Both the position numbers and the translations under genes were made by a program. From Bacteroidota bacterium (GTDB lineage: Bacteria; Bacteroidota; Bacteroidia; 2-12-FULL-35-15), in assembly GCA_947476185.1 (NCBI GenBank), contig CANJPX010000010.1, forward strand, positions 574 through 64,573: DNA of 64,000 nt, given 5' to 3'. Below are positions 33,038 through 56,279 of this stretch, one piece after another. Within the stretch, counting starts at the first letter, position 1. Every line of letters starts with the position of its first letter. The notes beneath the pieces were generated by a model. It did not search any database. It worked only from the letters and a program-made list of their open reading frames with translations, and had not been told where the DNA came from.

Positions 33038-33309
33038 AATTGTAATAATTAAATTGTTTTATTATTAATTTGATTCTAAATAAAAATTACTCAAAACCAC
33101 TATTCAGTATTTAGTTTTCCTGAATTTAAGGGTGCAAATATAGAATAACAATTATTATTTACCAATTTTAAGATGATTTGGTTGATTTTATGATTTTCGA
33201 GGTTTATTAGATGGGTAATTTTTCTGCAAAAAAAACCAATGAAGCACAATCATAAAGAACCCCTTTCAATGATATATTGCTTATATTTGTGAGTATTAAT
33301 TCCGTTGTC

Positions 33310-35679: not shown

Positions 35680-35994
35680 ATGCATACGCAGTTAAAAAAA
35701 TATTTTTCAATCCTATTCCTTTTCCTACTGTTATTTCCAATAATAGAAAAAGGATTACACTCCTATGAGCATCAGAAAGATCTTCATTGCACCGCGACAG
35801 AAAAACATTTTCACGACCTTGAACACGCTTGTTCCATTTGCGATTTTACGACCACAGACTCTAATAACTCACCGGAATCGGGCGTACAATTTATTATTAG
35901 CGCTAAAGAATTTTCCTTTTTTCCGTTTACTCAACAATTAAAAATTCCATACCCGTATTCTAATCTTCCTTCACGGGCACCTCCTGTAGCTTAG
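35680..35994 (+). CDS. hypothetical small membrane-anchored His/Cys-rich protein
   Basis: 104 aa. N-terminal hydrophobic segment then HSYEHQKDLHCTATEKHFHDLEHACSICDF. No family recognised. Coding status uncertain. Confidence 0.3.
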   Translation: MHTQLKKYFSILFLFLLLFPIIEKGLHSYEHQKDLHCTATEKHFHDLEHACSICDFTTTDSNNSPESGVQFIISAKEFSFFPFTQQLKIPYPYSNLPSRAPPVA

Positions 35995-37224: not shown

Positions 37225-37258
37225 AAAAATAAAAACAATTTTAAAAAAACAAAAAAAA

Positions 37259-38251: not shown

Positions 38252-39100
38252 ATGTTCGACATGTTTCAATTGGATTTTATGCTTCTTGCATTTGTGATAA
38301 GCATTATAATAGGTATCTTACTGTCTTATCTTGGCGTGCATGTAGTGGGAAGAGGAATTGTTTTTGTGGATCTTGCACTCGGTCAGATCTCCTCACTTGG
38401 CGTTGCATTTTCTGATTATGTAGGTTATGGCAAAACGATCATCCCGATATTATTTGCTTTGTTCGGAGCATTGCTGATGTCGCTCATCAACATTAAAGAC
38501 AAGCGGCTGAAGCTTGAAGCAGTAATTGGAATTATTTATGCTGTTTCATCTGCAGTAACAGTAATGTTAATCTCCAAAACCCCACATGGTGATTCGGACA
38601 TTCAAGAGGTACTTTTTGGAAATATCCTTTCTATTGATTGGACACAAATAACGATCATCGGAAGTATTTTCGGAGCAATTGCCTTGTTTCATCTTATCTT
38701 TTACAAGAAGTTCTTTTTATTGACCGAATGTTTTGAAACAGAAAACAGCCAACTGGGACAAACAGTCTTTAAGAAAAAAGGCGAATTCAGTTTCTGGAAT
38801 TTCATGTTCTATTTATCAATCGGATTAGCAATTGTATTTGCGGTGAGGGTGAGCGGAGTAATTCCGGTTTTTGCCTTTCTGATAATTCCGGCAGTTGCAT
38901 CGATCATGCTTTTCAAAAATAATCTTGGTCTTGTAATTTCTTCTATACTGATAAGTATCATAGGTGCATTTTTCGGATTGAACGTTTCCTATCATTTTGA
39001 TTTCCCTGCTGGCTCATCATTAGTAGCAGTATTAGGGGGTATTTTCTTCATGATCTCCTTGTTCTATATATTCAAAAGCATGATGAAAAAGAAAAACTGA
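38252..39100 (+). CDS. metal ABC transporter permease (ZnuB/ABC-3 family)
   Basis: 282 aa with 8-9 TM segments, ABC-3 type. Directly follows the SBP gene. No ATPase gene adjacent. Confidence 0.75.
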   Translation: MFDMFQLDFMLLAFVISIIIGILLSYLGVHVVGRGIVFVDLALGQISSLGVAFSDYVGYGKTIIPILFALFGALLMSLINIKDKRLKLEAVIGIIYAVSSAVTVMLISKTPHGDSDIQEVLFGNILSIDWTQITIIGSIFGAIALFHLIFYKKFFLLTECFETENSQLGQTVFKKKGEFSFWNFMFYLSIGLAIVFAVRVSGVIPVFAFLIIPAVASIMLFKNNLGLVISSILISIIGAFFGLNVSYHFDFPAGSSLVAVLGGIFFMISLFYIFKSMMKKKN

Positions 39101-39216: not shown

Positions 39217-39606
39217 TTGAAAAAGTCACTGATCTTATTTTTGACATTCATTTACCTGGTTGTAGCATCAGGCGTGGCTTTTAATTTCCATTACTGCCGA
39301 GGTAAGATCAGCAGCATCTCTCTTGCATTTGTCAGCAACCACGATAATTGTTGTGGAAAAAAGAAAATGACAAAGAAAAACTGTTGTAAAAACAAAACCT
39401 CAGTTTTAAAAATAAACGACAATCAACATTCTTCAACAAATATCAAAGCGCCTTCAACAATCATTACGGCTATTGACGCTAGTTTTACACAGATCAACTT
39501 CAGTGTTGCATCTATCATTGAAGCGAAAACCATTTCAAGAATTCACGCCCCCCCTGATATTTATCAGGATTCGATATACCTGCAATATCGCGTATTGATC
39601 ATTTAG
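39217..39606 (+). CDS. hypothetical small Cys-rich membrane-anchored/secreted protein
   Basis: 129 aa. Hydrophobic N-terminus then HYCRGK..NHDNCCGKKKMTKKNCCKNK. No family recognised. Confidence 0.35.
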   Translation: MKKSLILFLTFIYLVVASGVAFNFHYCRGKISSISLAFVSNHDNCCGKKKMTKKNCCKNKTSVLKINDNQHSSTNIKAPSTIITAIDASFTQINFSVASIIEAKTISRIHAPPDIYQDSIYLQYRVLII

Positions 39607-39763
39607 AATTTTCCTTTTTGTCATTTCCATACTAATTTTCAGTAATGGGAATTTTATGCTTTTGCATATGCCTATGACAACAATTTCTGTATTTCTATTT
39701 CGGGAATAATTACAAACTTATTTTTACAATTTCAATATTTATTAATCATAAAATACAACGCTA

Positions 39764-39997
39764 ATGAAAACTAAAATCATTCTATCAAGTTTCGTACTTT
39801 CAACAATAATTATTTTTTCTTGTAACGGTGAAGCAAAGAAAGATGCCACCGCAACTGAAAATGCGAGTCAGCCTGTAGCAGCTTTTGCTTATACCTGTCC
39901 GATGCATCCTGATGTAAAAAGCGATAAACCGGCACAATGCCCTGATTGTGGAATGGATCTGGAAAAAGTAGAAAAGACAGATAGTATCAGCCATTAG
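39764..39997 (+). CDS. small lipoprotein consisting of a heavy-metal-binding domain (HMBD; YxCPMHP...CPxCGMxL motif)
   Basis: 77 aa. Lipobox ..IIFSC. Motif AYTCPMHPDVKSDKPAQCPDCGMDLEKV matches the HMBD found at N-termini of CusB-like and other metal efflux proteins. Confidence 0.65.
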   Translation: MKTKIILSSFVLSTIIIFSCNGEAKKDATATENASQPVAAFAYTCPMHPDVKSDKPAQCPDCGMDLEKVEKTDSISH

Positions 39998-40099
39998 ATC
40001 CTATAAAATAAATTGTTTTTATGATTCGTCAAATAAAATATTTTAATCATGTTATATAGATTACTATTTTTTCTTCTTCCATTAGGATATCTATTTTCA

Positions 40100-40107
40100 C
40101 CCCCCCC
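40100..40107. repeat. poly-C homopolymer (8 C) at the junction between a signal-peptide ORF and a cytochrome c domain ORF
   Basis: Direct reading of ttttcaCCCCCCCCactt. Frames 40049..40234 and 40150..40470 differ by one position. Confidence 0.9.
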
Positions 40108-40149
40108 ACTTACTTTGCTAAGAGGTTTGAAAAAGAACAGAAAGATACC

Positions 40150-40470
40150 TTGGTTACAATTTCACCAATTGAAAAAATTAAAAAAGGAAAATTATTATTT
40201 GAACAAAACTGTTTGTTGTGTCACGGTGCTTTAGGAAAAGGAGATGGATATGCCGGCATTTATCTAAATCCAAGACCCTTTGACATCAGTTCCGAAAAGG
40301 TACAAATACAAAGTGATTCCACCCTTTTTTTTAAAATCACTCTTGGAAAAGCACCTATGCCAACTTTCAAAGCACTGCCTTTTGAATCAAGATTATATCT
40401 ATTAATGTATGTCAGAGAACTTGGGAAAAATAATAATAAACAGACCGCTAAAAATGATTCGAAGAACTAA
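40150..40470 (+). CDS. class I c-type cytochrome domain (CxxCH); apparently frameshifted from its signal peptide at the poly-C tract
   Basis: ..KLLFEQNCLLCHGALGKGDGYAGIYLNPRPFD.. heme-binding CLLCH. As it stands the ORF starts at a TTG with no export signal. The upstream frame-2 ORF (40049..) encodes MLYRLLFFLLPLGYLFSPPP. Confidence 0.6.
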   Translation: MVTISPIEKIKKGKLLFEQNCLLCHGALGKGDGYAGIYLNPRPFDISSEKVQIQSDSTLFFKITLGKAPMPTFKALPFESRLYLLMYVRELGKNNNKQTAKNDSKN

Positions 40471-41674
40471 CTACTGCATATGGATAATTATTTTTTCTTT
40501 TTTAATAGTTGAAAAAGGAGAAGCAATAAATAATGACACCATTTCAAAAAAAGAAAACTTTAAATTCTCCCGAATTGTATTTTCCGGAAACGGTTATTGT
40601 GGAGTCGATGTACATTTAAATAAGTCTCTAAAAGACAGTACGGGAATGGAATCTACATCCCTTCCAATTGGTTTGGCTCCAATCATATTATGGAAGCTCA
40701 CACCTCAGTTATTTATTGAAAGTGAATTCGATTTTATGATGGATCATGGAATGTTAAGTGGAGAAATTGGATATGCAAATTTATGCTACTCCACGAATAA
40801 ATTGGGCACGATACAAATAGGAAAATTTCTTAGTCCGTTCGGAATTTATTCAGAACGCTATCACCCATTTTGGATAAATAATGCTCCAAATACACCGTTG
40901 GGATTCGCACATGAAGGATCTTCACCTGAATCAGAGTTAGGTGTTTGTTATAAAGTAGGTTCCAAACATTTTACATATGCTATGTATGCATCTTTGAGTC
41001 CAAAAATAGATGGAGGGAGTGAAAATGTAAAAAATGCAGGTAAAATTATTTTCCACATTGATCTGAGAGAAAAGTTCAATAAAAAAATTGGTTTGGGCGC
41101 TCGAGTAGGAATTTTGCCATTTAAAAACCCTTCTATAGAACTGGGACTTTCCTATAAATGGATGCAATTGGAAGTTGGCGAACATTACGATGGAACAGCG
41201 GTCACACACACGCATCCATCTGGCGAGCAATCAAAATATTACATTGGGAATATGTATGCTGTTGATCTTACGATTGAAAAAATCCTTGCCCGATTGAAAG
41301 GTAAGATTGATATAAAAGCACAAGTAAATTACACAGATGTTGGAACTAATAATTTTATAAAAACTAGTCCAAGTGGAATTACTGAAATTGATTATTCTTA
41401 TTCAAATAAGAGTGAAATTGGATTTGCAATGCTATCCTTTAAACCAATATTAGTTGACAATTACATCCTAAAAAGATCAGGAATATTTGTACGTGGAGGG
41501 ACCTTACAATTGCCTATTGGTTCTTTATGGTACGAGACAACCTATGAAATCACAGCTGGATTAAATTATTCATTTAATTGGCAAAATATCCTGAAAATAG
41601 GATACCAGCAGATTTCAACTGCAAAAAAAGGTTATACAAATAATATATTGTTACAATGGGCTGTAGGTTTTTAA
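40454..41674 (+). CDS. hypothetical outer-membrane beta-barrel protein
   Basis: About 406 aa from MIRRTNYCIWIIIFSFLIV. Amphipathic beta-strand pattern. C-terminal ..LLQWAVGF ends in Phe (OM barrel signature). Confidence 0.45.
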   Translation: MIRRTNYCIWIIIFSFLIVEKGEAINNDTISKKENFKFSRIVFSGNGYCGVDVHLNKSLKDSTGMESTSLPIGLAPIILWKLTPQLFIESEFDFMMDHGMLSGEIGYANLCYSTNKLGTIQIGKFLSPFGIYSERYHPFWINNAPNTPLGFAHEGSSPESELGVCYKVGSKHFTYAMYASLSPKIDGGSENVKNAGKIIFHIDLREKFNKKIGLGARVGILPFKNPSIELGLSYKWMQLEVGEHYDGTAVTHTHPSGEQSKYYIGNMYAVDLTIEKILARLKGKIDIKAQVNYTDVGTNNFIKTSPSGITEIDYSYSNKSEIGFAMLSFKPILVDNYILKRSGIFVRGGTLQLPIGSLWYETTYEITAGLNYSFNWQNILKIGYQQISTAKKGYTNNILLQWAVGF

Positions 41675-41688
41675 ATAGAAAATTCGTA

Positions 41689-41940
41689 ATGCTAACAATT
41701 TGCTTTGCGCTTGCATTTATTATTCATAGTTGCAAAACAAAAAATGAGCTAATAATAGAAAAAAGCGGAGCTCAACTTTGGGGAGAAAATTGTGGCCGCT
41801 GTCATAACACACCTGACCCAACAACATATACAGATGAAAAATGGGAAACTGTTGCCATGCATATGAAAGTCAGGGCAAATATATCTTCCAAAGAAATCGT
41901 TTTGATCAAGGAATTTTTGAAATCAGCAAATGGCGATTAA
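41689..41940 (+). CDS. small lipoprotein with a single CxxCH heme-binding motif
   Basis: 83 aa from MLTICFALAFIIHSC (lipobox). ..LWGENCGRCHNTPDP.. Ends 11 nt before the TonB-dependent receptor gene. Confidence 0.55.
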   Translation: MLTICFALAFIIHSCKTKNELIIEKSGAQLWGENCGRCHNTPDPTTYTDEKWETVAMHMKVRANISSKEIVLIKEFLKSANGD

Positions 41941-41950
41941 AAATTAAATA

Positions 41951-44185
41951 ATGAAAAAACTATATTATAAATATATCATCCTTCTTGGAATCCTGTTCAT
42001 TACTATTCTGAGCACAAATGCTCAAAATATTGCAGGAACTGTATTTGGAATAAATGATAAAGGGTTAAATGAAATTCTTCCAGGTGCAAATGTATATTGG
42101 AAAGGAACATCCATTGGCACTTCAACAGATATTAATGGCAAATTTCAAGTTCCAAACCCTGAAGCGGTTCCCTCCAAATTAATTATCAGCATGATTGGTT
42201 TTATGAGCGACACAATGACAATTGAAAAACCAGATCAATTGAATATAAAAGTTGTATTAAAAAGCAGCATCACATTAAAAACTGTCAATATTGAAGCGAA
42301 ACAAAATTCCACAATGTATTCAACTTTTAACCCAATCAATTCTGAAGTAATTAGTGGAAAGGAATTACTTAAAGCTGCCTGCTGCAACCTTTCGGAAAGT
42401 TTCAGCACGAATGCCTCTGTTGATGTCGCATTTACCGATGCAGTCTCTGGAGCAAAAAAAATTCAAATGCTTGGACTTGATGGTGTGTATACACAAGTGT
42501 TATCTGAGAATATGCCGATGTTAAGAGGATTGTCAGCGGCTTACGGTTTAAATTATATTCCAGGCACATGGATTGACAACATCTTAGTTACCAAAGGAAC
42601 AGGATCTGTAGTGAATGGATATGAAAGTATATCAGGACAAATCAATCTTGAGTTTTTAAAACCACAAAATCAAAAAAAACGTTTGTTTATTAATTTGTAT
42701 GCAAATGAAAAAGGGCGGGATGAAATAAATGTCCATTTGGCAAAAAAATTTAATACAAAATGGACAACACTTCTATTTACCCATTTGAGTGATATGAGCA
42801 TGAAGAATGATGCTAATAAAGATGGATTTTTAGATATGCCCTTAACTCGTCAATACAATATTTTTAACCGATGGGATTATCATAATCAGAAAAATTTCGA
42901 ACAGCAGTTTGGAATAAAAGCACTTTATGAAATGCGTCAAGGAGGACAAACAAATTTCAATTACAACAGAGATCATGATAGCACAAGTGCTTATGGTATA
43001 GGTATCAATACTACTGCTTTAGAATATTTTTCAAAAACAGGATTCATGTTTCCATCAAGACCTTTAAAGAGCGTTGGTATTCAAACTTCAGGAAAATGGC
43101 AACAACAAGAAATGTATTTTGGTATAAGAAAATACAATGGAGAACAAAAGAATTTTTATACAAATATCATTTATGCAAACTTCATCAACAATACAGATCA
43201 CAAATATAAATTGGGTGCAAGCTATATGTTAGATGATTATTCAGAAAAGTACAACGACTCATCTTTTACCAGAACAGAAAGTGTTCCCGGAGTATTTGCC
43301 GAATATACTTATACACACCCTGATAATTTTTCTATCGTTATCGGCGGCCGCGCAGATTACCATAACATGTATGGAATACAATATACACCACGTTTGCATT
43401 TACGTTTCAATGCAACAAAAACAACTACTTTTAGGCTATCAGGAGGCAGAGGCTTCAGAACATCAAACATTTTTGTGGAAAACCAATCTGTATTCGCAAG
43501 TTCAAGAAAGGTCGTAATCGCAGAAAAGCTTAAGCCTGAAATTGCTTGGAACTATGGCGTTTCGGCTAATCAAAAATTTACTTTATTCGATAATGAAGCT
43601 TCTGTAAATGTTGATTTTTTCAGAACCGATTTTCAGAATCAAGTAATCGTTGATATTGATCAAAGCGTAAACAAAGTGGTGTTTTATAATTTAAATGGAA
43701 GATCTTATTCCAATAGTTTGCAAATTGATTGTGGTTATTCTCCCATAAAAATGTTTGACATAAAGGTTGCCTATAAATGGTACGATGTTAAAACAACATA
43801 TAATTATGAATTACTCGACAAGCCCTATATTCCAAAGCATCGCGTGATGTTCAATATGGCATATTCAACATATATGGATATTTGGAAATTTGATTTTACA
43901 ACAAATTGGCTAGGAGAAAGCAGATTGCCAAGTACAGAATTATCTCCTATTGAATATAAATTACCAAAACATTCAAACCCTTACTTTTTACTAAATGCGC
44001 AGATTACAAAAAAATTTAAAACATTTGAACTTTACTTGGGTTGCGAAAACATTTTGAATTACACGCAGAGAAATCCAATCATTGCCTCAGAAAACCCATT
44101 TGGCAGCAACTTCGATGCTTCAATGATCTATGCACCTATTGAAGGTCGAAATATTTATGGGGGATTCAGAATGAGTATCAAATAA
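41951..44185 (+). CDS. TonB-dependent outer-membrane receptor with N-terminal carboxypeptidase-regulatory-like domain
   Basis: 744 aa. Signal peptide, CarbopepD_reg-like start (..NIAGTVFGINDKGLNEILPGANVYW..), plug, 22-strand barrel length. Contains a CC pair (..LLKAACCNLSESF..). Confidence 0.85.
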   Translation: MKKLYYKYIILLGILFITILSTNAQNIAGTVFGINDKGLNEILPGANVYWKGTSIGTSTDINGKFQVPNPEAVPSKLIISMIGFMSDTMTIEKPDQLNIKVVLKSSITLKTVNIEAKQNSTMYSTFNPINSEVISGKELLKAACCNLSESFSTNASVDVAFTDAVSGAKKIQMLGLDGVYTQVLSENMPMLRGLSAAYGLNYIPGTWIDNILVTKGTGSVVNGYESISGQINLEFLKPQNQKKRLFINLYANEKGRDEINVHLAKKFNTKWTTLLFTHLSDMSMKNDANKDGFLDMPLTRQYNIFNRWDYHNQKNFEQQFGIKALYEMRQGGQTNFNYNRDHDSTSAYGIGINTTALEYFSKTGFMFPSRPLKSVGIQTSGKWQQQEMYFGIRKYNGEQKNFYTNIIYANFINNTDHKYKLGASYMLDDYSEKYNDSSFTRTESVPGVFAEYTYTHPDNFSIVIGGRADYHNMYGIQYTPRLHLRFNATKTTTFRLSGGRGFRTSNIFVENQSVFASSRKVVIAEKLKPEIAWNYGVSANQKFTLFDNEASVNVDFFRTDFQNQVIVDIDQSVNKVVFYNLNGRSYSNSLQIDCGYSPIKMFDIKVAYKWYDVKTTYNYELLDKPYIPKHRVMFNMAYSTYMDIWKFDFTTNWLGESRLPSTELSPIEYKLPKHSNPYFLLNAQITKKFKTFELYLGCENILNYTQRNPIIASENPFGSNFDASMIYAPIEGRNIYGGFRMSIK

Positions 44186-44220
44186 TAATAAACACAATTA
44201 AAAATCAAAAACTAAAAAAA

Positions 44221-44580
44221 ATGAAAAGAAAACTATTTACGGGAATCATAGCCGTGCTTTTGCTATTTTCTTCAAACGTAAAAGCACAAGATTTAAAAAG
44301 TGCGGAAATAAAAATTAAGACTTCTGCAACTTGCGACATGTGCAAAAAAACAATAGAAAGTGCTCTCGCATTCGAAAAAGGCGTAAAAAAATCAACGTTG
44401 GATGTACCTACAAAAATAGTTACAGTTGTATACAACCCAAAGAAAACAACGCCAGAAAAAATTCGACTGGCAATTTCCAATGCAGGATATGAAGCTGACA
44501 GCTTAAAAGCTAATCCTAAAGCATGGAGCAACTTAGAGGATTGTTGCAAAAAAGGCACCACTTGTGAAGAAAAAAAATAA
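44221..44580 (+). CDS. periplasmic heavy-metal-associated (HMA) domain protein (copper-chaperone-like)
   Basis: 119 aa. Signal peptide. HMA fold with metal-binding ..TSATCDMCKKTIESAL.. (CxxC). C-terminal ..EDCCKKGTTCEEKK Cys cluster. Confidence 0.75.
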   Translation: MKRKLFTGIIAVLLLFSSNVKAQDLKSAEIKIKTSATCDMCKKTIESALAFEKGVKKSTLDVPTKIVTVVYNPKKTTPEKIRLAISNAGYEADSLKANPKAWSNLEDCCKKGTTCEEKK

Positions 44581-44785
44581 TTGTTGAAGTTCTCTATTTT
44601 CAATAACGATTGAATACTAATAATTGTAGCATTTTAGAGCAATTTTAAAAATAATTTTAGTAAATTTGATTCAATGAATACGTGGATATTCAAATAAATG
44701 GGATTAAGAATAACAAAACCCTAACAAAATATCAAAATCACTAGAAACTCTTTTAAAATAAAATAATCGCAAATAAATAAAACCA

Positions 44786-45559
44786 ATGAAAAAAATAATA
44801 CTAATCACTCTTGCCGGCATTATCTCTAGTTTTGGCTTTGCACAAACGACAGCAACAGACTTCACAGTAAATGATTGTTCCGGAACTTCACATCATCTTT
44901 TCGCTGAATTGGATGCAGGTAAAGTTATTGTAATTGCTTTTGTAATGCCATGCACTTCTTGTATCGCACCATCTGTTTCTGCTTATTCGGAAGTACAAAA
45001 CTATGCAAGCACTTATCCTGGACGTGTTTTATTTTATTTATCCGATGACCTGGGAACTGCTACCTGTTCATCAATAACAAACTGGGGAACAACAAATGGA
45101 ATAACCGGAGTTCCAGTGTTTTGCAATACCGCTGTCAAACAAGCAGATTATGGTGCAGCAGCAATGCCTAAAATTGTAGTTTTAGGTGGTCCTACTCATA
45201 CTGTTCTTTTTTCGCAAGACAATGGATTGAATGTAACAAATTTCAATGCTGCTATTAATTTAGGATTAGTTGCAGGCATCTTTGAAAATTCAAAATCCGA
45301 CTTCGAATTGTCAGTTTTCCCTAATCCTTCAAAGACAGATAAAACCACTATAAACTACACTCTGAAAGAAGGTTCTGATGTCACCGTTGACATTTATAAT
45401 ACAATTGGTGAAAAAGTTAAGACCATCGCGCTTGAAAAGCAAGCTGCAGGAAAACACGAATCAATATTAGATTTTGAATCATTGACCAATGGAATTTATT
45501 TCATAAAGTTGAATGCGGGAGAATCATCTCAAGTACTCAAATTCAGTGTTTCACATTAA
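44786..45559 (+). CDS. thioredoxin-fold (TlpA/redoxin-like, CxxC) protein with T9SS type A C-terminal sorting domain
   Basis: 257 aa. Signal peptide. ..GKVIVIAFVMPCTSCIAPS.. redoxin-type active site. C-terminal ..LSVFPNPSKTDKTTINYTL..GIYFIKLNAG.. T9SS C-terminal domain. Confidence 0.65.
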   Translation: MKKIILITLAGIISSFGFAQTTATDFTVNDCSGTSHHLFAELDAGKVIVIAFVMPCTSCIAPSVSAYSEVQNYASTYPGRVLFYLSDDLGTATCSSITNWGTTNGITGVPVFCNTAVKQADYGAAAMPKIVVLGGPTHTVLFSQDNGLNVTNFNAAINLGLVAGIFENSKSDFELSVFPNPSKTDKTTINYTLKEGSDVTVDIYNTIGEKVKTIALEKQAAGKHESILDFESLTNGIYFIKLNAGESSQVLKFSVSH

Positions 45560-45584
45560 GATTTTATTTTGATTGTTATTTTAC

Positions 45585-45626
45585 AACCTGATATTATCTT
45601 TTAATAATATCAGGTTGTTTTTTTTA
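45585..45626 (+). terminator. rho-independent terminator after the first thioredoxin-T9SS gene
   Basis: Perfect hairpin AACCTGATATTAT-CTTTTA-ATAATATCAGGTT followed by GTTTTTTTTAATT. Confidence 0.7.
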
Positions 45627-45646
45627 ATTATTAAATTTTAAATTCT

Positions 45647-46756
45647 ATGCGTTCTCTTATTTTTATTGCAACGACAATTCTATTCGCAAATAATATTTAT
45701 TCGCAAGGATGTTGTTCAGGTGGCAGTGGCAGTCCAATTGCAGGAGGAGCTTCACAGGGAGTCCTTCAAGACAGACAGGTTGAAGTTGCAGCAAATTATC
45801 AATACATCAACACGAATAAATTTAAATCCGGTGACAAAGATACGGCAGCTTTATTCGATGGATTCACAAGTAACTACATGTATCTTCGATTAGCATATGG
45901 CCTGACAAAAAACCTGACCATGTCTGTTGAATCAGGATATTATTTAAATAAAACACAAATCGGATTAAACAGAGTCGATACATTTAGTTCAGCCGGAATT
46001 GGCGACCTGATTTTATTTCCAAGATATGATGTATTAAACAGAACATCAGAAAAAAAACGCACAGAAATCACCTTGGGTATCGGACTAAAAATTCCATTAG
46101 GCATGTATGACGACTCAACTCTTTTTTACACAAACCCATATACAAGAAAACAGCTTTTCAGACCGTCACCTCCTTCAGTACAACCCTCTACAGGAGCGAA
46201 TGATTTTATTTTTTACGGCTTCTTTTACAGAGGTTATCCTGAAAAAAAATTCAGAGTATTCATGAATACATTATACGTTCGCAAAGGCTGGAGTCCAATT
46301 GGAGCGAAATTCGGGGATTACGCAAGTGTCGGTTTATTTGCCGGTCAAACCTTCTTTAAAAAATTAGGAGTTACCATACAGGTAAAAGGAGAATGGATCG
46401 GAAAAATGAAAGCCAGCCAAAATGCAGATGATATGATGAATATGTATAATGTGGATATCGTTTCAACAGGCAGCCGAAAAATATTATTTGTGCCTCAGCT
46501 TAGTTATAGCTATAACAGCTTCTCTATTTATGCCTTGACAGAAATTCCGCTTTACCAATATGTCAACAAAGTACAAGTAGCATCGCAAGTTCAGGCAACT
46601 GTGGGGATTTCATATCGATTTAATGCGTATAAAAAAATAGCCGTTAAAAGTGATTCGCAAAGTCTTTATGTTTGTCCGATGGGCTGTGTTGGAAGCGAAA
46701 GCAATGAACCTGGAAAATGCAAAGAATGCGGAATGGAATTAATAAAAAGAAAATAA
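45647..46756 (+). CDS. outer-membrane beta-barrel protein with N-terminal Cys-rich stretch and C-terminal heavy-metal-binding domain (HMBD) extension
   Basis: 369 aa. Signal peptide then QGCCSGGSGSP. Barrel body ending ..VGISYRF. C-terminal tail ..YVCPMGCVGSESNEPGKCKECGMELIKRK is the same YxCPM...CxxCGMxL motif as the 39764 lipoprotein. Confidence 0.55.
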   Translation: MRSLIFIATTILFANNIYSQGCCSGGSGSPIAGGASQGVLQDRQVEVAANYQYINTNKFKSGDKDTAALFDGFTSNYMYLRLAYGLTKNLTMSVESGYYLNKTQIGLNRVDTFSSAGIGDLILFPRYDVLNRTSEKKRTEITLGIGLKIPLGMYDDSTLFYTNPYTRKQLFRPSPPSVQPSTGANDFIFYGFFYRGYPEKKFRVFMNTLYVRKGWSPIGAKFGDYASVGLFAGQTFFKKLGVTIQVKGEWIGKMKASQNADDMMNMYNVDIVSTGSRKILFVPQLSYSYNSFSIYALTEIPLYQYVNKVQVASQVQATVGISYRFNAYKKIAVKSDSQSLYVCPMGCVGSESNEPGKCKECGMELIKRK

Positions 46757-46767
46757 AAAATAATCGA

Positions 46768-47544
46768 ATGAAAAAATTATTGACACTTATTTCTGTATTC
46801 TTATTTGTTTCAGTGTCTTTATACGGGCAAACAGCAATTGACTGGACCAAACTAGATTGTTCAGGAATCAGCCATAATCTTTATACGTATTTAAATAATG
46901 AGGATGTTGTAATTATGGAATTTGCTATGGGTTGTAGCAGTTGTACCAATGCCGGAGCACGACTACTTAGTATAAAAGACAAATATGCAATTTCTAATCC
47001 TGGGAAAGTAAACGTATTCTATATGGATTACTGGCCTGGAAATACCTGTGCAACTGTTGTTTTACCTACAACTACGCCTTATGCCTTTGATGCTGTATTT
47101 GATCATTCACTTGCAGAAAAAGATAATTATTTTGCTAGCTCCTCTCCAATGCCCGGTATTGCAATTGCTGCGGGAAGTTCACATCAGATAATTTATCAGG
47201 TAAATAGTTTTGTTGATGCTGATACTACATTAATTGAACAAGCAATCACTGCATTTTTCGCAACAGCAAACATTAAAGAAAACCTTTTCGAAAATACAAT
47301 AACACTTTCTCCAAATCCCTCCACTGGAGATGTAATAATTAATTTTACAAATACAGAAACAGAAAACATTAATATTTCACTTTTTAATTTAAATGGTCAA
47401 TTGATTAAAGGACTCTTTAATGAGAAAGTATCAGTTGGAGATTTCAAAAAAATAATTGATATCCGATCCTATCCTAAAGGCTTATATTACATTAACATTT
47501 CCAATTCAAAATACTCAATTAACAAAAAGATAGTTGTAAATTAA
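46768..47544 (+). CDS. thioredoxin-fold (CxxC) protein with T9SS type A C-terminal sorting domain, paralogue of 44786..45559
   Basis: Signal peptide MKKLLTLISVFLFVSVSLYGQ. ..DVVIMEFAMGCSSCTNAG.. C-terminal ..TLSPNPSTGDVIINF..GLYYINIS.. T9SS C-terminal domain. Collinear similarity with the 44786 protein (..DCSG.SH.L...L.....V.I..F.M.C.SC..). Confidence 0.65.
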   Translation: MKKLLTLISVFLFVSVSLYGQTAIDWTKLDCSGISHNLYTYLNNEDVVIMEFAMGCSSCTNAGARLLSIKDKYAISNPGKVNVFYMDYWPGNTCATVVLPTTTPYAFDAVFDHSLAEKDNYFASSSPMPGIAIAAGSSHQIIYQVNSFVDADTTLIEQAITAFFATANIKENLFENTITLSPNPSTGDVIINFTNTETENINISLFNLNGQLIKGLFNEKVSVGDFKKIIDIRSYPKGLYYINISNSKYSINKKIVVN

Positions 47545-47580
47545 GTCCCTTATCAGATTTCTTCTGATTATGTTGTACAT

Positions 47581-47970
47581 TTGTTTCATAACGAAATACT
47601 ATTGAAATCATTTATTGCACTATTAATTGCTTTTGCCATTATTTTCCAATCAGCCGGAAAGCTAATTATTATTGTGCATTACTCCTTAAACAAAGAATAC
47701 ATTTCAAAAAACTTATGTGAAAACAGAGCAAAGCCAAAAATGCATTGCAACGGTAAATGTCATTTAAAAAAGGAATTACAAAAAGAAGACAAGAAAGATA
47801 ATTCTCCATCAAATAATTTAAAAGAAAAGTATGAAGTACAATTTTTCGAAAAATTTAAAAAAATAATAAATATCCTGCCTTTCAGCGAAAGAGAAAAAGC
47901 TACAACAACTTATTTGTTTCCATTCTCATCTGAGGACCTGAGCGCCATATTTCACCCACCACAATCATAA
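47581..47970 (+). CDS. hypothetical small membrane-anchored Cys/His-rich protein
   Basis: 129 aa. N-terminal TM segment then ..HYSLNKEYISKNLCENRAKPKMHCNGKCHLKK... Loosely similar layout to the 39217 protein. Confidence 0.3.
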   Translation: MFHNEILLKSFIALLIAFAIIFQSAGKLIIIVHYSLNKEYISKNLCENRAKPKMHCNGKCHLKKELQKEDKKDNSPSNNLKEKYEVQFFEKFKKIINILPFSEREKATTTYLFPFSSEDLSAIFHPPQS

Positions 47971-48165
47971 TTAACGATAAAATTTAATTTTCCGTGTTGC
48001 CTTTTTGCAGATGGCATAAACTATTAACATTTCTGTTGATGGATGTTTTTTTACATGCAATTATTTGGTTACGGGAAAAAGTTCACATTTTTAGAACTAC
48101 TTTTTAGAAAAACAAATCAATTATCGATTTGTTATATTTTTATTTATCTAATAATTATAAATATT

Positions 48166-48954
48166 ATGAAACCACATAAAATATTTTTCGCATTTTTTTT
48201 ATCAGTTACACTTCTTGCTTCATCTTGTAAAAAAGACAAAGATGAAGAAACGCCAACACCTTCAGTTCCCGCTGCCACATCTGGAAGCCTGGCACTTCAT
48301 TTTGAAAATATGGTGGGAGATAGTGCCTTGGTAATGAATACCGAATCATATGTAACTGCAAACAATGATACAATTACTGTTTCTGCATTTAAATATTATA
48401 TCAGCAACATTGTATTAACTAAAAGCGGTGGAGGAACATATGTTGAAAATGAGAGTTACCATTTAATTGATGCTTCTGACTTATTAACCGGTGAATTTAC
48501 TCTTCCAAATGTTCCTTTCGGGGATTACACAGGAATTACATTTATGATCGGTGTTGACAGTACACGGAATGTTTCAGGTGCACAAACCGGAGCATTAGAT
48601 CCTGTAAATGGAATGTACATGGGAATGGGTGCAGGTTATATCCAAGCAACCTTGGAAGGATTATCTCCACAGTCAACATCTGGAGGGCACATGTTCATGT
48701 ACCAAGTTGCTGGATTCCAAGGAATATACAACCCTCTTAAAACTATTTCTCCAACTTTTTCAGGTGGTATCGCCACTGTCACATCAAGTGTTATTCCAGA
48801 AATTCACTTCAAAACGAATTTATTAGAATGGTTCACAACGCCTAACAACATTAGCATTTCCGCTGTGAGTATGGTAATGTCTGTTAACTCAACAAGTCTA
48901 AATTTCGCTGACAACTATGCAGACATGATAAGCGTTGAACACATACACAATTAA
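48166..48954 (+). CDS. lipoprotein, possibly MbnP-like (copper-associated periplasmic protein family)
   Basis: From MKPHKIFFAFFLSVTLLASSC (lipobox). ..FKYYISNIVLTKSGGGTYVENESYHLIDAS.. and C-terminal ..NFADNYADMISVEHIHN resemble what I recall of Bacteroidota MbnP-family proteins. Tentative. Confidence 0.4.
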   Translation: MKPHKIFFAFFLSVTLLASSCKKDKDEETPTPSVPAATSGSLALHFENMVGDSALVMNTESYVTANNDTITVSAFKYYISNIVLTKSGGGTYVENESYHLIDASDLLTGEFTLPNVPFGDYTGITFMIGVDSTRNVSGAQTGALDPVNGMYMGMGAGYIQATLEGLSPQSTSGGHMFMYQVAGFQGIYNPLKTISPTFSGGIATVTSSVIPEIHFKTNLLEWFTTPNNISISAVSMVMSVNSTSLNFADNYADMISVEHIHN

Positions 48955-48961
48955 TAAATAT

Positions 48962-49021
48962 AGTATCATATAGTCGCTTCGTGGATCTTTCTATTACGGC
49001 TATATGATACTTTTATAATTT
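48962..49021 (+). terminator. rho-independent terminator after the MbnP-like gene
   Basis: 15-bp inverted repeat AGTATCATATAGTCG / CGGCTATATGATACT (1 mismatch) followed by TTTTATAATTT. Confidence 0.5.
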
Positions 49022-49161
49022 CTAAAAGGAGTCAATTGCAATTTGATAATCTGACTAATAATTTATAGGCATAAAAAATATTTTTATAAGAAAAAAACTA
49101 ACAAAAGAAATATCATTTTATATCAAGAAAAGAACCTTAACTTTAACTTAAATTAAAAAAA

Positions 49162-49545
49162 ATGAAACATTCATTTAGGTATTTAGCAATTCTTTATTTC
49201 GTTACTTTAATTGCAATGACTATCACGTCATGTAAAAAAGAAGGAACCGGTGGAAAATCTAGTGTAAGTGGAAGTGTAAAGCACCATTCCAGACTTATTC
49301 CCAACGCTATTGTTTACATAAAATATGGTGCAACAGAATTTCCGGGAACAGATATTAGTAAGTATGATGACCACGTAACTTCGGATGCGGATGCACATTA
49401 TGAATTCAAAGACCTGCGCAAAGGTGATTATTATTTGTATGGAGCTGGATACGACACGTATGGCCTTTTTAATGTTACCGGAGGCGTTGGTATAAAATTA
49501 AAATACAACAAGTCAATTACCATAGATGTTCCGGTAACGGAGTAA
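49162..49545 (+). CDS. hypothetical lipoprotein with beta-sandwich (carboxypeptidase-regulatory/transthyretin-like) features
   Basis: 127 aa. Lipobox ..MTITSC. ..GSVKHHSRLIPNAIVYIKYG.. pattern. Confidence 0.4.
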   Translation: MKHSFRYLAILYFVTLIAMTITSCKKEGTGGKSSVSGSVKHHSRLIPNAIVYIKYGATEFPGTDISKYDDHVTSDADAHYEFKDLRKGDYYLYGAGYDTYGLFNVTGGVGIKLKYNKSITIDVPVTE

Positions 49546-49645
49546 AAAAATTTGAAGCTCAAATCGATTTGACATCACGTTTTATTTTTTAAAGAACTAC
49601 GATTAACGAAAAACTTAACCATTCCGATTTTTATTATTTATTAAA

Positions 49646-51106
49646 ATGAAGCGTAAACAAAAAATACTATTTTTTATTCCATTAACAATTTTTATTGTTT
49701 GCTTCTTAACGACATGCACCAACGATAAAGGAATACCTGATTACAATCAATTTCCTGATGATGTCGGAAAAATAATTTTCACTAAATGTGCTACGCCCGG
49801 CTGTCACACAGATATAAGCAAAGGTGCAACAGGAGGTCTTTCACTGGAAAGTTGGGATAAAATGTTTGATGGAGGGAAAACCAGTGCCTGTGTTATCCCC
49901 TACAGAAATGACTACAGCACATTTTTTTCCTATATAAATACATATTCAGATCTAGGTGTAACACTTTTACCGGTTATGCCATACAATAAAAATCCTTTAA
50001 CGCGTGAGGAAGTTATACTATTAGGAAACTGGATCAATGCAGGGGCGCCCAGCAGAGATGGCACTATAAAATTTGCAGACGATCCTAATCGTAAAAAGTT
50101 TTATGTCACAAACCAAGGTTGTGATGTTGTAACTGTGTTTGATCAAAAAACACAATTACCAATGCGTTACATCAATGTAGGAAACTCCGCAGCTACGGAA
50201 TCTCCGCATGACATAAAAGTTTCACCTGATGGACAATATTGGTATGTTGTATTTTTACAAGGAAATTCAATCCAAAAATATAAAACGAGTGATGACACTT
50301 TTGTGGGTGAAGCTTTTTTAGGTGTAAAGAGTTGGAATTCTTTTACGATGACAAGTGATGGTTCTAAGGCCTATGTGGTTGACTGGAGCAGCAGTGGCGA
50401 TGTTGCAGTGGTAGACCTTAACACATTTGCTGTAACACATAATATTGGTTTTAATTATCCACATGGTTCTTGTCTTAATCCAACAGAAGATACTTTATAT
50501 GTAACGGAACAAAACAATAGCAGCAAAATGTATAAAGTTCCCGTAAATGATTTTTCTGCATTCTCAGAAATAAATTTATTTACAACACCGCCTCCCTCTT
50601 TTCTGAATTCACATCTTGTAGACTTTTCCCCTGATGGAACAGAATATTTTGTGACTTGTCAAGGAACATCAGAAGTCAGAGTTTTTCAACAAGGAACAGA
50701 TCAATTATTAGCGACAATACCGGTTGGAGGACTTCCTTCTGAAATGGCAATTTCAGATCTTCACAATTATTTATTTGTTACCTGTGAAGAGGATACACTT
50801 TCCTTTCCAGGCAAAAGAGGAAGCATCGCTGTAATCGACATTGCAAGTAATTCATTAATAAAAACAATTTATTCGGGCCATCAACCGCATGGAATTGATG
50901 TTGACGATGAAAAAAATCTGGTTTATATCGCCAACAGAAATAAAACGAATGATGGCCCGGCACCTCATCACACAAGCGTTTGCGGCGGCAGGAATGGGTA
51001 TGTTACTTTTATTGATATGAATAGTTTAGAATTGATTCAAGCGGGTGCCGGCGCAAAAAAAACCGAGGTTTCCGTGGATCCATATGAAGTAGCTGTCCGT
51101 CACTGA
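49646..51106 (+). CDS. lipoprotein with N-terminal mono-heme cytochrome c domain fused to a YVTN-type beta-propeller (cd1-like architecture)
   Basis: 486 aa. Lipobox ..FLTTC. ..IIFTKCATPGCHTD.. (CxxCH) and ..LTREEVILLGNWINAGAP cytochrome c C-terminal helix. Repeated propeller blades (FYVTNQG, AYVVDWSS, LYVTEQNN, YFVTCQG, LFVTCEED, VYIANRN). Confidence 0.7.
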   Translation: MKRKQKILFFIPLTIFIVCFLTTCTNDKGIPDYNQFPDDVGKIIFTKCATPGCHTDISKGATGGLSLESWDKMFDGGKTSACVIPYRNDYSTFFSYINTYSDLGVTLLPVMPYNKNPLTREEVILLGNWINAGAPSRDGTIKFADDPNRKKFYVTNQGCDVVTVFDQKTQLPMRYINVGNSAATESPHDIKVSPDGQYWYVVFLQGNSIQKYKTSDDTFVGEAFLGVKSWNSFTMTSDGSKAYVVDWSSSGDVAVVDLNTFAVTHNIGFNYPHGSCLNPTEDTLYVTEQNNSSKMYKVPVNDFSAFSEINLFTTPPPSFLNSHLVDFSPDGTEYFVTCQGTSEVRVFQQGTDQLLATIPVGGLPSEMAISDLHNYLFVTCEEDTLSFPGKRGSIAVIDIASNSLIKTIYSGHQPHGIDVDDEKNLVYIANRNKTNDGPAPHHTSVCGGRNGYVTFIDMNSLELIQAGAGAKKTEVSVDPYEVAVRH

Positions 51107-51519
51107 TGTCTCCATTACCCGAAAATAGCAACATTATACTTTTTGATGGCATCTGTAATCTCTGCAATTCATATGTCAATAAAACTATCAAGCTCGACAA
51201 AAAAAATAAATTTAAATTTGCTACACTTCAATCAGAAGTTGGAAAAAAAATATTACGTGAATGCTTGATTGACCCTTCAGTAACTGACAGCATTATTTTA
51301 TTTGAAAACAAAACTGCCTATTCAAAATCAACGGCCGTACTTAAGATTGCAAAACTCATTGGCGGACTTTATTCATTAGCCTTCGCTTTTATTATTATCC
51401 CACCATTCATTCGAAATGCTGTTTACGATTTCATTGCAAAAAACAGGTATAAATGGTTTGGAAAAAAGGAAACATGTATGGTTCCTACAGAAGAAATAAA
51501 GTCAAAATTTATTTCTTAA
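51106..51519 (+). CDS. thiol-disulfide oxidoreductase, DCC family (DUF393)
   Basis: 137 aa. ..IILFDGICNLCNSYVN.. is the DCC-family DGxCxLC signature. Its ATG overlaps the upstream TGA (TGATG), suggesting translational coupling. Confidence 0.75.
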   Translation: MSPLPENSNIILFDGICNLCNSYVNKTIKLDKKNKFKFATLQSEVGKKILRECLIDPSVTDSIILFENKTAYSKSTAVLKIAKLIGGLYSLAFAFIIIPPFIRNAVYDFIAKNRYKWFGKKETCMVPTEEIKSKFIS

Positions 51520-52008: not shown

Positions 52009-52944
52009 TTAAACAGCAAGAGTACTTAAAATGCTATTCATGTTTCTTACTGCATCTGCACTTTTAGCAAAAGCAGCTTTTTCTTCGTCATTCAATTTTA
52101 CATCTACAATTTTCTCCCAACCATTTTTTCCAATGATAACAGGAACTCCAATACAAATATCTTTTTGTCCATATTCACCATCTAAATAAACGCAGCAAGA
52201 AAATAATTTTTTCTGATCGTTCAAAATACTATCAACTAAAGCGGCAACAGCTGCTCCAGGAGCATACCAAGCAGAAGTACCTAGCATACCTGTTAATGTA
52301 GCACCACCAACCATTGTATCTGCAGCAACTTTTTTCAATTTTTCAGCATCAAGTAATTGTGAAACTGGAACTCCTTTGTAGGAAGCCATTCTTGTTAACG
52401 GAATCATTGTAGTATCACCGTGACCACCAATAACCATTCCTTCAATATCATTCGGAGAAGCGTTCAAGGCTAAAGATAAATAACATTTAAAACGAGCGCT
52501 ATCCAAGATTCCGCCCATTCCGATAATTCTATTTTTCGGTAATTTGCTATCTTTCAATGCAAGGTAAGTCATTGTATCCATTGGATTACTCACAACCACA
52601 ACAATTGCATTTGGAGAATGTTTTAATAAATTTTCTGTAACACCTTTTACGATGCCCGCATTTATTCCGATCAATTCTTCTCTTGTCATTCCAGGCTTAC
52701 GAGGAACTCCACTTGTAATAACAACAACATCACTGTTAGCCGTTTTTGAATAATCATTTGTGCTACCGCTAACACGGGTATCAAACCCATTTAATGTTGC
52801 AGTTTGCATCATGTCCAATGCCTTTCCTTCAGCAAAATTTTCTCTGATATCTAGCAATACTACCTCTGAAGCGATTTTACGAAATGCTAATACATCTGCT
52901 GATGTAGCGCCAACATTTCCAGCTCCTACTACTGTTACTTTCAT
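52009..52944 (-). CDS. mdh: malate dehydrogenase (LDH-like MDH family)
   Basis: Start taken at MKVTVVGAGNVGATSADVL (the ORF track extends 22 codons upstream). Typical ..ITSGVPRKPGMTREEL.. and substrate-binding blocks. Confidence 0.85.
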   Translation of the reverse strand: MKVTVVGAGNVGATSADVLAFRKIASEVVLLDIRENFAEGKALDMMQTATLNGFDTRVSGSTNDYSKTANSDVVVITSGVPRKPGMTREELIGINAGIVKGVTENLLKHSPNAIVVVVSNPMDTMTYLALKDSKLPKNRIIGMGGILDSARFKCYLSLALNASPNDIEGMVIGGHGDTTMIPLTRMASYKGVPVSQLLDAEKLKKVAADTMVGGATLTGMLGTSAWYAPGAAVAALVDSILNDQKKLFSCCVYLDGEYGQKDICIGVPVIIGKNGWEKIVDVKLNDEEKAAFAKSADAVRNMNSILSTLAV

Positions 52945-53155
52945 ATTTTTTTTGATTTTTAGGTTATCGAAATTTTCGAGGGCTAATTTAGAAAAGAAAA
53001 ACATATTCAACTATGTTTTTTTGAACAGTTTTAGCAATTTAATAGCATTTTTAAAAAAATCACTTTTTTGATGCAACTTAAATTTAACTTTTTGCATCTG
53101 CCTGAAAGGCAGATTATAATATTTGCATTATATTAGTAGCGATAAAACTTTCTTT

Positions 53156-56234: not shown

Positions 56235-56279
56235 TATTTAATGATACTCAAACTGAAACGAATAAAAACGCTCCCTTGC

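Follow-up and report, generated by a model that had tools for sequence, protein, structure and literature searches.

A cluster of copper-type metal genes in a Bacteroidota genome, probably a mosaic of separately conserved cassettes

Copper acquisition is poorly understood beyond a few Proteobacteria and methanotrophs. In Bordetella, the small exported DUF2946 protein CruR senses copper through a CxxC motif of its nascent chain while the ribosome is arrested on an RAPP motif, which lies 45 residues (±1–2) downstream and three residues before the stop codon (PMC9426467). In Bordetella pertussis, CruR governs Rho-dependent termination in front of the gene of the TonB-dependent copper importer BfrG/CrtA (PMC9426467, PMC12914433), and its homologues head operons with TonB receptors, MbnPH-like genes and AhpC/TSA genes (PMC9426467). 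CutF (cutFOG of Rhodobacter capsulatus) combines a CxxxC motif with a proline-rich C terminus (PMC9973294; bioRxiv 10.1101/2025.02.05.636593), and CutF-like proteins number 5,334 in a published survey, with 19% coming from Bacteroidota; such proteins are often encoded upstream of resistance-nodulation-division (RND) efflux or TonB-like genes (PMC9973294). In MbnP, Trp174 of the WxW motif is converted to kynurenine by MbnH and forms the copper site together with a His and a Met, and the W174Y mutant binds copper poorly (PMC11951088). Here we analyze a cluster of copper-type metal genes at positions 39217–51519 of a 64,000-nucleotide stretch of a Bacteroidota genome (assembly GCA_947476185.1, contig CANJPX010000010.1, positions 574–64,573 of the forward strand), hereafter called the window.

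The 12-kb stretch contains 15 open reading frames (ORFs) plus one split ORF, and the + strand is used throughout, as a preliminary description of this DNA had stated for about 15 genes. The genes are numbered G1–G15. The co-directional run starts further upstream, with an FG-GAP protein of the type IX secretion system (T9SS; 33277–35586) followed by a 104-residue ORF (35680–35991, +), here named small104, which lies outside the 12-kb stretch. When matches were judged against the curated cut-offs of Pfam and NCBIfam, 11 of the 15 family calls received profile support: two HMBD domains, HMA, MbnP, the TonB-dependent receptor, two T9SS tails, DCC, one cytochrome c, ZnuA and ABC-3. The HMBD (G2 and the tail of G9), HMA, MbnP, receptor, T9SS and DCC calls of the preliminary description were thus borne out above cut-off. 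Four Pfam-backed metal-binding domains in 15 genes should be far above chance. A thiophilic-metal theme, with copper as the most likely metal, is well founded from HMBD, HMA, MbnP and the CruR/CutF-like leader ORFs; such a theme had been proposed before, and copper itself is the part of it that we infer. We consider it probable that the region is a lineage-specific mosaic of separately conserved copper-homeostasis cassettes in a variable hotspot, partly decayed, and not one 15-gene machine. Each cassette is apparently headed by the gene of a small copper-sensing leader peptide.

Modular organization in the window and related loci

The comparison covered 95 related loci, 80 of them anchored on MbnP (from species-representative genomes, out of 582 matches) and 15 on the receptor or G14. 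All window proteins were mapped onto the MbnP loci, and a metagenome scan anchored on G6 provided 10 loci. Among the 95 loci, the 15-gene composition of the window recurs in a single one (L003), which belongs to the same metagenome-assembled genome (MAG), and nowhere else in the 80 MbnP loci do G1–G10 and the Znu genes stand beside MbnP. A contig from a Bacteroidota MAG of Lac Pavin (JAPLDC010000298.1) is essentially identical to the window over 8.6 kb. The frequencies of the individual MbnP neighbours differ widely. G11 lies directly upstream of MbnP in 55 of the 80 loci, the uncharacterised outer-membrane protein OMP349 is present in 56, and a di-haem peroxidase of the MbnH type (CCP_MauG match of 183 bits; best NCBIfam match MbnH) is encoded in 48, adjoining MbnP in 46 copies. 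G13 was found in 32, G14 in nine and DCC in six of them; DCC follows G14 in six loci, all from the closest clade, and the G13–G14 pair occurs without MbnP in one locus (L001). G3, G4, G5, the N-terminal domains of G8 and G10, Z0 (the gene after small104) and the Znu-like pair have no counterpart in the fetched loci, and G9 has only a distant relative there, OMP349 (31% identity over 110 residues).

The closest relatives (L004–L006, L009–L011 and L013) share the flanks of the window and carry differing inserts. Their backbone reads FG-GAP, small104, TonB receptor, G11, MbnP, MbnH, OMP349, G13, G14, DCC, (aspartic protease), (malate dehydrogenase), PKD protein. In the window, an 11.5-kb block (36.0–47.5 kb), comprising Z0, the ZnuA-like and permease genes and G1–G10, replaces the receptor. 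In L009 and L013, small104 and G11 are separated by the genes of a different receptor, a lipoprotein, an outer-membrane-like protein and an additional HMA protein. Because its contents vary in this way among relatives, we regard the small104–G11 stretch as a hotspot that collects metal genes. Three modules are independently conserved by these sequence comparisons: leader–receptor–HMA; G11–MbnP–MbnH–OMP–G13, sometimes with G14 and DCC; and the CxxC...RAPP leader with its receptor. The genes of a retropepsin-like aspartic protease (PF13650; 51509–51949, −) and malate dehydrogenase (52009–53010, −) lie on the opposite strand directly after the cluster; they are syntenic in all close relatives and mark the right-hand border of the metal region.

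Strong hairpins divide the co-directional run. A terminator-like hairpin at 45583–45618 (+), with a 15-bp stem followed by a T run, stands between G8 and G9, and another one (48953–49020, +; 24-nt arms, −28 kcal/mol, z −4.68) follows MbnP directly, in the position that mbnH and the outer-membrane gene occupy in relatives. These hairpins, the intergenic gaps and TAnnTTTG sites point to several transcription units, and the sequence suggests a mosaic of at least five: small104, Z0, binding protein and permease; G1, G2 and G3–G7; G8; G9–G12; and G13–G15. No shared operator or repeat was detected among the intergenic regions, a sigma-70 promoter scan performed no better than on shuffled sequences, and scans of the window for Rfam families and tRNAs gave no matches.

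Candidate leader peptides

Three small ORFs have the layout of nascent-peptide sensors. The first one, small104, was located by tblastn with a homologue from a close relative (L006, 64% identity) and consists of a signal/transmembrane segment, CSIC, 44 residues, RAPP, two residues and the stop codon. An exhaustive phmmer search returned 246 representatives of its family, of which the best 150 were scored for motifs. CxxC is present in 147 and R[GA]PP in 135 of these 150, and two to three residues follow PP in 122; the spacer from Cys to PP could be scored in 138, with 44 residues in 108 and 45 residues in 20. In eight of eight relatives, small104 is located just upstream of a TonB receptor. 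In the window, the next genes are not a receptor but Z0 and, directly behind it, the ABC binding protein and permease.

The second candidate, G11 (47581–47970, +), is a leader-type ORF that precedes MbnP. A signal segment, CxxxC, a spacer of ∼65 residues, FHPP and two final residues make up its product. In its family, CxxxC is found in 36 of 43 members and PP in the last six residues in 37 of 43, and the spacer is held at 64–68 residues despite poor sequence conservation. In relatives, G11 lies between the receptor and MbnP, and a long intergenic region follows. The third candidate, G1 (39217–39606, +), encodes a small membrane protein in leader position that matches NCBIfam HYC_CC_PP (DUF8199; NF047658, E 3e-15) and contains two CC pairs, a spacer of 52–55 residues, PP and a hydrophobic tail of 15–16 residues. 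The products of small104, G1 and G11 are 104, 129 and 129 residues long, with N termini that are hydrophobic by inspection, and gaps of 87, 157 and 195 nt separate them from the downstream genes. All three are therefore shorter than 150 residues, start with an N-terminal export signal and precede a same-strand gene within 1 kb. The proline motif falls within the last 15 residues in small104 and G11, and G1 misses this distance by one residue.

A TAnnTTTG element, the −7 box of the Bacteroidota type, occurs 9 nt upstream of small104 and 20 nt upstream of G1, and a stable hairpin (z −3.1) follows small104. These candidate boxes and the hairpin fit the leader model. G1 and G11, described earlier as two Cys-rich small proteins that handle metal in the envelope, are better read as regulatory leader peptides, and by analogy all three candidates probably work like the copper-sensing nascent peptides CruR and CutF. 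Bacteroidota largely lack initiation based on Shine-Dalgarno sequences, so the mechanism of CutF, in which a stem-loop over the ribosome-binding site is opened, is unlikely to operate here in this form.

Leaders of the G1 family head more than one type of cassette. A DUF8199 (PF26622) gene lies just upstream of the receptor–HMA pair in L083, L085 and L096, and similar ORFs occupy this position in L087–L091; in L085 and L096, the leader–receptor–HMA trio is isolated among housekeeping genes. A Cus/Czc-type RND efflux operon with an HMBD-bearing adaptor is led, in L083 and L093, by a further copy of G1 (71% identity) together with a homologue of G2 (74%). DUF8199 leaders thus appear to be reused as cassette heads for import-type and export-type genes alike. 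Positions 12739–22235 of L083/L093 contain three DUF8199 copies, located before the receptor–HMA pair, before the HMBD lipoprotein and Cus-type RND pump, and before an HMBD/HMA protein.

MbnP unit, receptor–HMA pair and inserted genes

G12 (48166–48954, +) encodes a lipoprotein of the MbnP family (PF20243, E 1.6e-46, 159 bits versus a cut-off of 27) that lacks WxW. With its AlphaFold model (pLDDT 75), the only significant Foldseek matches in the PDB were chains of 7L6G, MbnP of Methylosinus trichosporium (E 1e-6, probability 1.0, TM 0.44–0.48). This link emerged only from the fold search, as the MbnP alignment used as a profile against PDB sequences gave no match, even at E 10. Membership of G12 in the MbnP family and, according to the model, in its fold holds. 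WxW is present in 84 of the 86 aligned MbnP copies, and the MxM sequence YMGMGA occurs only in the window and L003. Two columns without any variation in the other 84 copies are substituted in G12 (K162T and H180Q), and two nearly invariant columns nearby are altered as well; its closest relatives deviate at one such column. The changes are limited to one patch, and the C-terminal EHIHN is retained.

No mbnH was detected by tblastn in the 64-kb window, and the interval between MbnP and G13 measures only 207 bp, with both mbnH and OMP349 missing. The idea that loss of WxW tracks the absence of an adjacent MbnH was rejected: WxW persists in 25 MbnP copies that have no MbnH nearby, and the loss is therefore specific to the organism of the window. 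Judged from sequence, the canonical copper site of G12 may be decaying after the loss of MbnH, or it may have been replaced by a Met-based site that works without oxidative maturation. The mature N terminus of these MbnP lipoproteins reads C-K-K-D-P-D-E-E, in which C, K and D are invariant or nearly so. We take CKKDxDEE after the lipid Cys to resemble the surface-export signal of Bacteroidota lipoproteins; if this signal is real, MbnP would be located on the cell surface, whereas its proteobacterial counterpart is periplasmic.

The unit is completed by three genes. G13 (49162–49545, +) encodes a small lipoprotein, probably a β-sandwich, with a weak CarboxypepD_reg match (E 0.024). G14 (49646–51106, +) encodes a lipoprotein composed of a seven-bladed YVTN propeller, with YVTN and lactonase matches, and an N-terminal C-x4-CH domain; its homologues share 60–73% identity. 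In 26 homologues at 59–71% identity, C48-x4-C53-H54 as well as H441, H442 and C446 (APHHxxxCGGRNG, near the C terminus) are invariant. The propeller is modelled confidently, and its structural matches are YVTN proteins, Lp49, NirN, cd1 nitrite reductase and BtuG1/BtuG2, while the N-terminal domain has low model confidence. Of the earlier assignment of G14 as a cytochrome c/YVTN protein, the propeller part stands and the cytochrome part is no more than tentative: the motif is C-x4-CH and not CxxCH, and the PSCyt1 match scores 19.7 bits against a cut-off of 22. The C-x4-CH and HHxxxC motifs may hold haem or a metal. G15 (51106–51519, +) is a DCC1-like thiol-disulfide oxidoreductase (PF04134, E 1.4e-30, 107 bits) with no signal peptide by inspection.

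Variants of the unit were seen in other loci. L012, L016, L044, L046 and L051 contain two MbnP paralogues in tandem, which are preceded or separated by a leader of the G11 type, and the second copy often lacks the C-terminal EHIHN. Cultured Hymenobacter (L060, H. sp. 102; L064, H. pini; L070, H. rigui; L073, H. properus) carry G11, MbnP, MbnH and OMP349, and L060, L064 and L070 have an additional MbnH-like gene ∼4 kb downstream.

The receptor–HMA pair consists of G6 (41951–44185, +), a TonB-dependent receptor with plug, barrel and CarbopepD_reg domains (89 bits), and G7 (44221–44580, +), a periplasmic HMA protein with a CxxC motif and a signal peptide (PF00403, E 1.4e-12, 48 bits). The G6 family is strongly conserved in Bacteroidota, with >100 cluster representatives at 66–80% identity, and a G7-type gene (54–68% identity) lies downstream of the G6-type receptor in 13 of 13 recovered loci. 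Residues 137–159 of G6 form the family-invariant sequence KELLKAACCNxSESFSTNASVDV, whose AACCN segment places a Cys-Cys pair in the plug region. CC pairs recur in the G6 plug, at the N terminus of G9 (QGCCSGG) and in G1, and OMP349 of relatives opens with CDFCGCF. The profile of G6 matched a single PDB entry, the colicin I receptor (E 4e-8), which gave no ligand clue. A conserved module of a receptor and T9SS thioredoxin-like proteins was also considered and rejected, as the similarity of G8 and G10 to the T9SS proteins beside the receptor in L083 and L085 is limited to the sorting domain.

The remaining genes belong to the inserted block. Z0 (36082–37224, +) encodes a secreted protein of 380 residues, possibly located in the outer membrane, with no Pfam or NCBIfam family. 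It is followed by the genes of a ZnuA-family cluster A-I metal-binding protein of an ATP-binding cassette (ABC) transporter (37256–38209, +; PF01297, E 1.2e-53) and a ZnuB-like ABC-3 family metal permease (38252–39100, +; PF00950, E 2.2e-36). The ZnuA/ZnuB pair of the preliminary description is confirmed at the family level and not beyond it: matches to the ZnuABC-type equivalogs ZnuA, AztC and ZnuB reach 41–99 bits versus cut-offs of 268–350, the NCBIfam equivalogs tried for the binding protein (AztC, ZnuA, MntC) all staying far under their cut-offs, and no Walker A or LSGGQ signature of an ABC ATPase was detected anywhere in the 64-kb window.

G2 (39764–39997, +) is an HMBD lipoprotein (PF19335, E 2.5e-13, 50 bits). 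G3 (40049–40470, +) encodes a small c-type cytochrome (CLLCH; Cytochrom_C PF00034, 24.8 bits versus a cut-off of 21.3) and, as reported earlier for a secreted cytochrome c broken at a poly-C tract, is frameshifted at a C8 tract (40101–40108) in a genome of 33% G+C. Removal of one C or addition of two would rejoin the signal peptide to the CxxCH domain, and the tract may be an assembly or sequencing error or a slipped-strand, phase-variable on/off switch. G4 (40448–41674, +) is a secreted, putative outer-membrane protein of ∼408 residues with a C-terminal Phe and no family match at E up to 10. G5 (41656–41940, +) is a small lipoprotein with a single CxxCH (CGRCH) and weak profile matches (Cytochrome_CBB3, 17.4 bits versus a cut-off of 27; TorC, E 3e-4). 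G8 (44786–45559, +) and G10 (46768–47544, +) encode T9SS-sorted CxxC proteins (Por_Secre_tail, E 5.9e-13, 49 bits and E 1.3e-13, 51 bits, respectively). They are paralogous (27% identity, E 1e-28), and both keep a CxxC after a hydrophobic strand and a later Met-Pro. This CxxC ... Met-Pro pattern is what suggests a putative thioredoxin-like fold; the best Pfam match was Thioredoxin_4 (E 0.13, G10 only), and a profile search of the PDB returned chance matches. G9 (45647–46756, +) is a putative outer-membrane protein with an N-terminal CC pair and a C-terminal HMBD (residues 341–367, E 5e-7, 30 bits). No whole-protein family match supported an outer-membrane barrel for G4, G9 or Z0.

Downstream of the metal region, positions 56240–64000 (+) are occupied by a single ORF of >2,588 codons, which begins near 56.24 kb and is open at the 3′ end of the window. 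A signal peptide is followed by Thr/Ala/Gly/Cys-rich repeats, and the product is probably a giant surface or T9SS protein. This ORF accounts for the G+C content of 0.44–0.46 (versus ∼0.34) and the apparent lack of listed ORFs in this part.

Proposed function, alternatives and comparison with known systems

In the function that we propose, G6 would carry a copper species across the outer membrane and pass it to the periplasmic HMA protein G7. MbnP-type lipoproteins and the HMBD proteins, G2 and the tail of G9, for which a role in copper binding in the envelope is likely, would bind the metal at the surface or in the periplasm. Transfer of a metal across the inner membrane may be the task of the binding protein and permease, although no ATPase gene lies nearby. 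Upstream of these cassettes, the nascent chains of small104, G1 and G11 would sense copper through their Cys motifs with the ribosome on the C-terminal PP motif, and the leaders would tune each downstream cassette to the copper supply.

A bolder combined reading, which we put forward tentatively, is that environmental Bacteroidota control copper uptake by at least three unrelated families of nascent-peptide sensors and that MbnP of the window has switched to a Met-based (MxM) Cu(I) site with no need for MbnH. The families may be small104 (CxxC, 44 residues, R[AG]PP), DUF8199/HYC_CC_PP (CC, 54 residues, PP) and G11 (CxxxC, 65 residues, FHPP), and their leaders may be placed ahead of, and even inside, the receptor–HMA import operons and the surface operons of the Bacteroidota MbnP/MbnH type. 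The geometry of small104 may stem from very remote homology to CruR or have been re-invented convergently. The MxM site may replace the kynurenine site, which depends on oxygen or peroxide, possibly as an adaptation to the low-oxygen deep water of Lac Pavin.

Several points weigh against the mosaic of leader-controlled copper cassettes. No match of small104, G1 or G11 to PF11162 (DUF2946) was found even at E up to 10, and hhalign comparisons of the three leader families revealed no significant relation (homologues of G1 were under-collected); because profile and mutual matches are both missing, DUF2946 membership is not claimed for any of them. The likeness to CruR and CutF is one of motifs and position, and G1, with its PP motif placed 16 residues before the C-terminal end, falls just beyond the published CutF-like filter. 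The profile search of the PDB revealed no characterised close relative of the G6 receptor. The metals bound by HMA and HMBD include Zn, Cd, Ag and Hg as well, and the ZnuA-family protein could point to zinc or manganese. The contexts of G3–G5 and G8–G10 were viewed in loci anchored on MbnP, the receptor or G14, the functions of all cluster proteins are predictions, and the same-strand co-localisation of so many metal genes could reflect functional coupling in this lineage.

Among the alternatives, tolerance of heavy metals (Cu/Ag/Zn/Cd) in place of acquisition fares best, and we still consider it unlikely. The HMBD and HMA proteins would then buffer the periplasm, and the leaders would induce the cassettes in metal excess as CutF does. 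HMBD is a usual feature of efflux adaptors of the CusB/CzcB type, an RND efflux operon with an HMBD-bearing adaptor is led by the homologues of G1 and G2 in L083, and CutF-like leaders mostly precede efflux genes (PMC9973294). However, no RND pump, P-type ATPase or multicopper oxidase is encoded near the cluster in the window, the core parts (TonB receptor, ABC binding protein and permease, MbnP) are of the import type, and the CruR-headed receptor operon of Bordetella is repressed by copper, not induced (PMC9426467). Slightly less credible is a role in the handling of zinc or another metal, with the region as a Zur-type low-zinc island of a ZnuD-like receptor, ZnuA/ZnuB and Cys-rich zinc binders. 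The block contains ZnuA and ABC-3 genes whose best NCBIfam names are zinc transporters, HMBD and CxxC motifs are able to bind zinc, and some CutF-like leaders are not copper-specific; yet the ZnuA matches are far under the equivalog cut-offs, the pair has no ATPase gene in the window, no operator is repeated in the intergenic regions, MbnP is a copper protein family, and the geometry of small104 is that of the copper sensor CruR. For the ABC unit taken alone, the substrate may be zinc.

It is improbable that the 15 genes form one integrated and previously undescribed system of the surface, outer membrane and periplasm that captures and redox-processes copper, as the preliminary description had proposed. 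The genes are co-directional with many short gaps (G3–G7 and G9–G11 are tightly packed), nearly every product bears a metal or thiol signature, and relatives likewise place HMA and outer-membrane genes beside MbnP loci. This coherence did not hold across genomes: conservation of the neighbourhood, which the same description had named as a check, was seen for several modules, which occur independently elsewhere, while the full set was confined to the same MAG among the 95 loci. Moreover, hairpins interrupt the run after G8 and MbnP, no redox partner is evident for the putative thioredoxin-like G8 and G10, and one cytochrome (G3) is frameshifted. Equally improbable is that a large part of the cluster consists of decaying remnants that have little function today, since the frameshift in G3, the deletion of mbnH and its partner outer-membrane gene, the ABC system with no ATPase in the window and the loss of WxW, two invariant and two nearly invariant residues from MbnP are set against the intactness of every other ORF, the roughly 60–80% identity of G6, G7 and G14 to widespread homologues, the confinement of the MbnP changes to one patch with the remainder, including EHIHN, kept, and a C8 tract that may be a sequencing error or a phase switch.

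As the comparison shows, environmental Bacteroidota possess a highly conserved module in which a TonB receptor is paired with a periplasmic HMA protein, at 66–80% identity in >100 lineages, as well as their own version of the MbnP/MbnH locus, to which an outer-membrane protein, a propeller lipoprotein and internal candidate leader ORFs are added. No experimental work on these Bacteroidota modules was found in the searchable literature, and searches for HYC_CC_PP, DUF8199 and MbnP in Bacteroidetes gave nothing useful. The leaders bear on whether translation arrest of the CruR/CutF type works in a phylum with a different translation initiation and Rho factor, and an MbnP without WxW and MbnH is a natural experiment on the dispensability of the kynurenine site. 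The cultured Hymenobacter that carry G11, MbnP, MbnH and OMP349 make these ideas accessible at the bench.

When the window is compared with the described systems, likeness is found part by part. Like CruR, small104 is an exported leader with CxxC, a fixed spacer (44–45 residues versus 45 in CruR) and R-A/G-P-P located two to three residues before the stop codon, and in relatives a TonB receptor follows. It differs in that PF11162 homology is not detectable, the host belongs to Bacteroidota, there is no PepSY_TM partner, and in the window the ABC genes and Z0 come next. G11 shares with the CutF-like leaders (CutF, CzcI, CopL, CusD) the signal peptide, CxxxC, the C-terminal proline motif and a length of <150 residues, and in L083 the genes that come after the G1 homologue are likewise those of an HMBD lipoprotein and a Cus-type RND operon. 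In contrast to the cutFOG arrangement, the downstream genes of the window are of uptake and binding types and do not include a multicopper oxidase, and PP of G1 is 16 residues from the end.

The MbnP/MbnH (MbnT) system of methanotrophs and other bacteria (PMC3621798; 7L6G) is matched by G12 in profile and fold, and in relatives by the MbnH gene that follows in 48 of 80 loci and a TonB receptor upstream. The window has no MbnH, its MbnP has MGM for WxW and Gln for the invariant His, and it is a lipoprotein with KKDxDEE after the lipid Cys; in the Bacteroidota loci, a conserved outer-membrane protein, G11, G13 and G14 are additional components. Methanobactin genes are absent. As with copper receptors of the OprC/NosA type, the TonB receptor G6 lies in a copper-related neighbourhood, and its invariant plug Cys pair could bind metal. 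However, G6 has only the general receptor fold, TIGR01778 was unmatched, its best NCBIfam matches are generic, and a fixed HMA partner is not a feature of OprC. The propeller lipoproteins of the BtuG type, which cap TonB receptors in Bacteroides, resemble G14 in lipidation and the seven blades, with BtuG1 and BtuG2 among the structural matches, whereas the similarity of G14 is generic to propellers, it has the extra N-terminal C-x4-CH domain, and its gene is not adjacent to the receptor in the window.

In summary, the parts resemble proteobacterial arrangements that have been described before: CruR with a TonB copper importer, MbnT/MbnP/MbnH, and CutF-like leaders with RND or TonB genes (PMC9426467, PMC9973294, PMC3621798). 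They are best seen as Bacteroidota counterparts of these known kinds, of which the CutF-like leaders have already been noted in silico in this phylum. What is new in comparison with them is the receptor–HMA module, the Bacteroidota MbnP locus with OMP349, G11, G13 and G14, the CxxC-44-R[AG]PP geometry at no detectable DUF2946 similarity, and an MbnP that has neither WxW nor MbnH.

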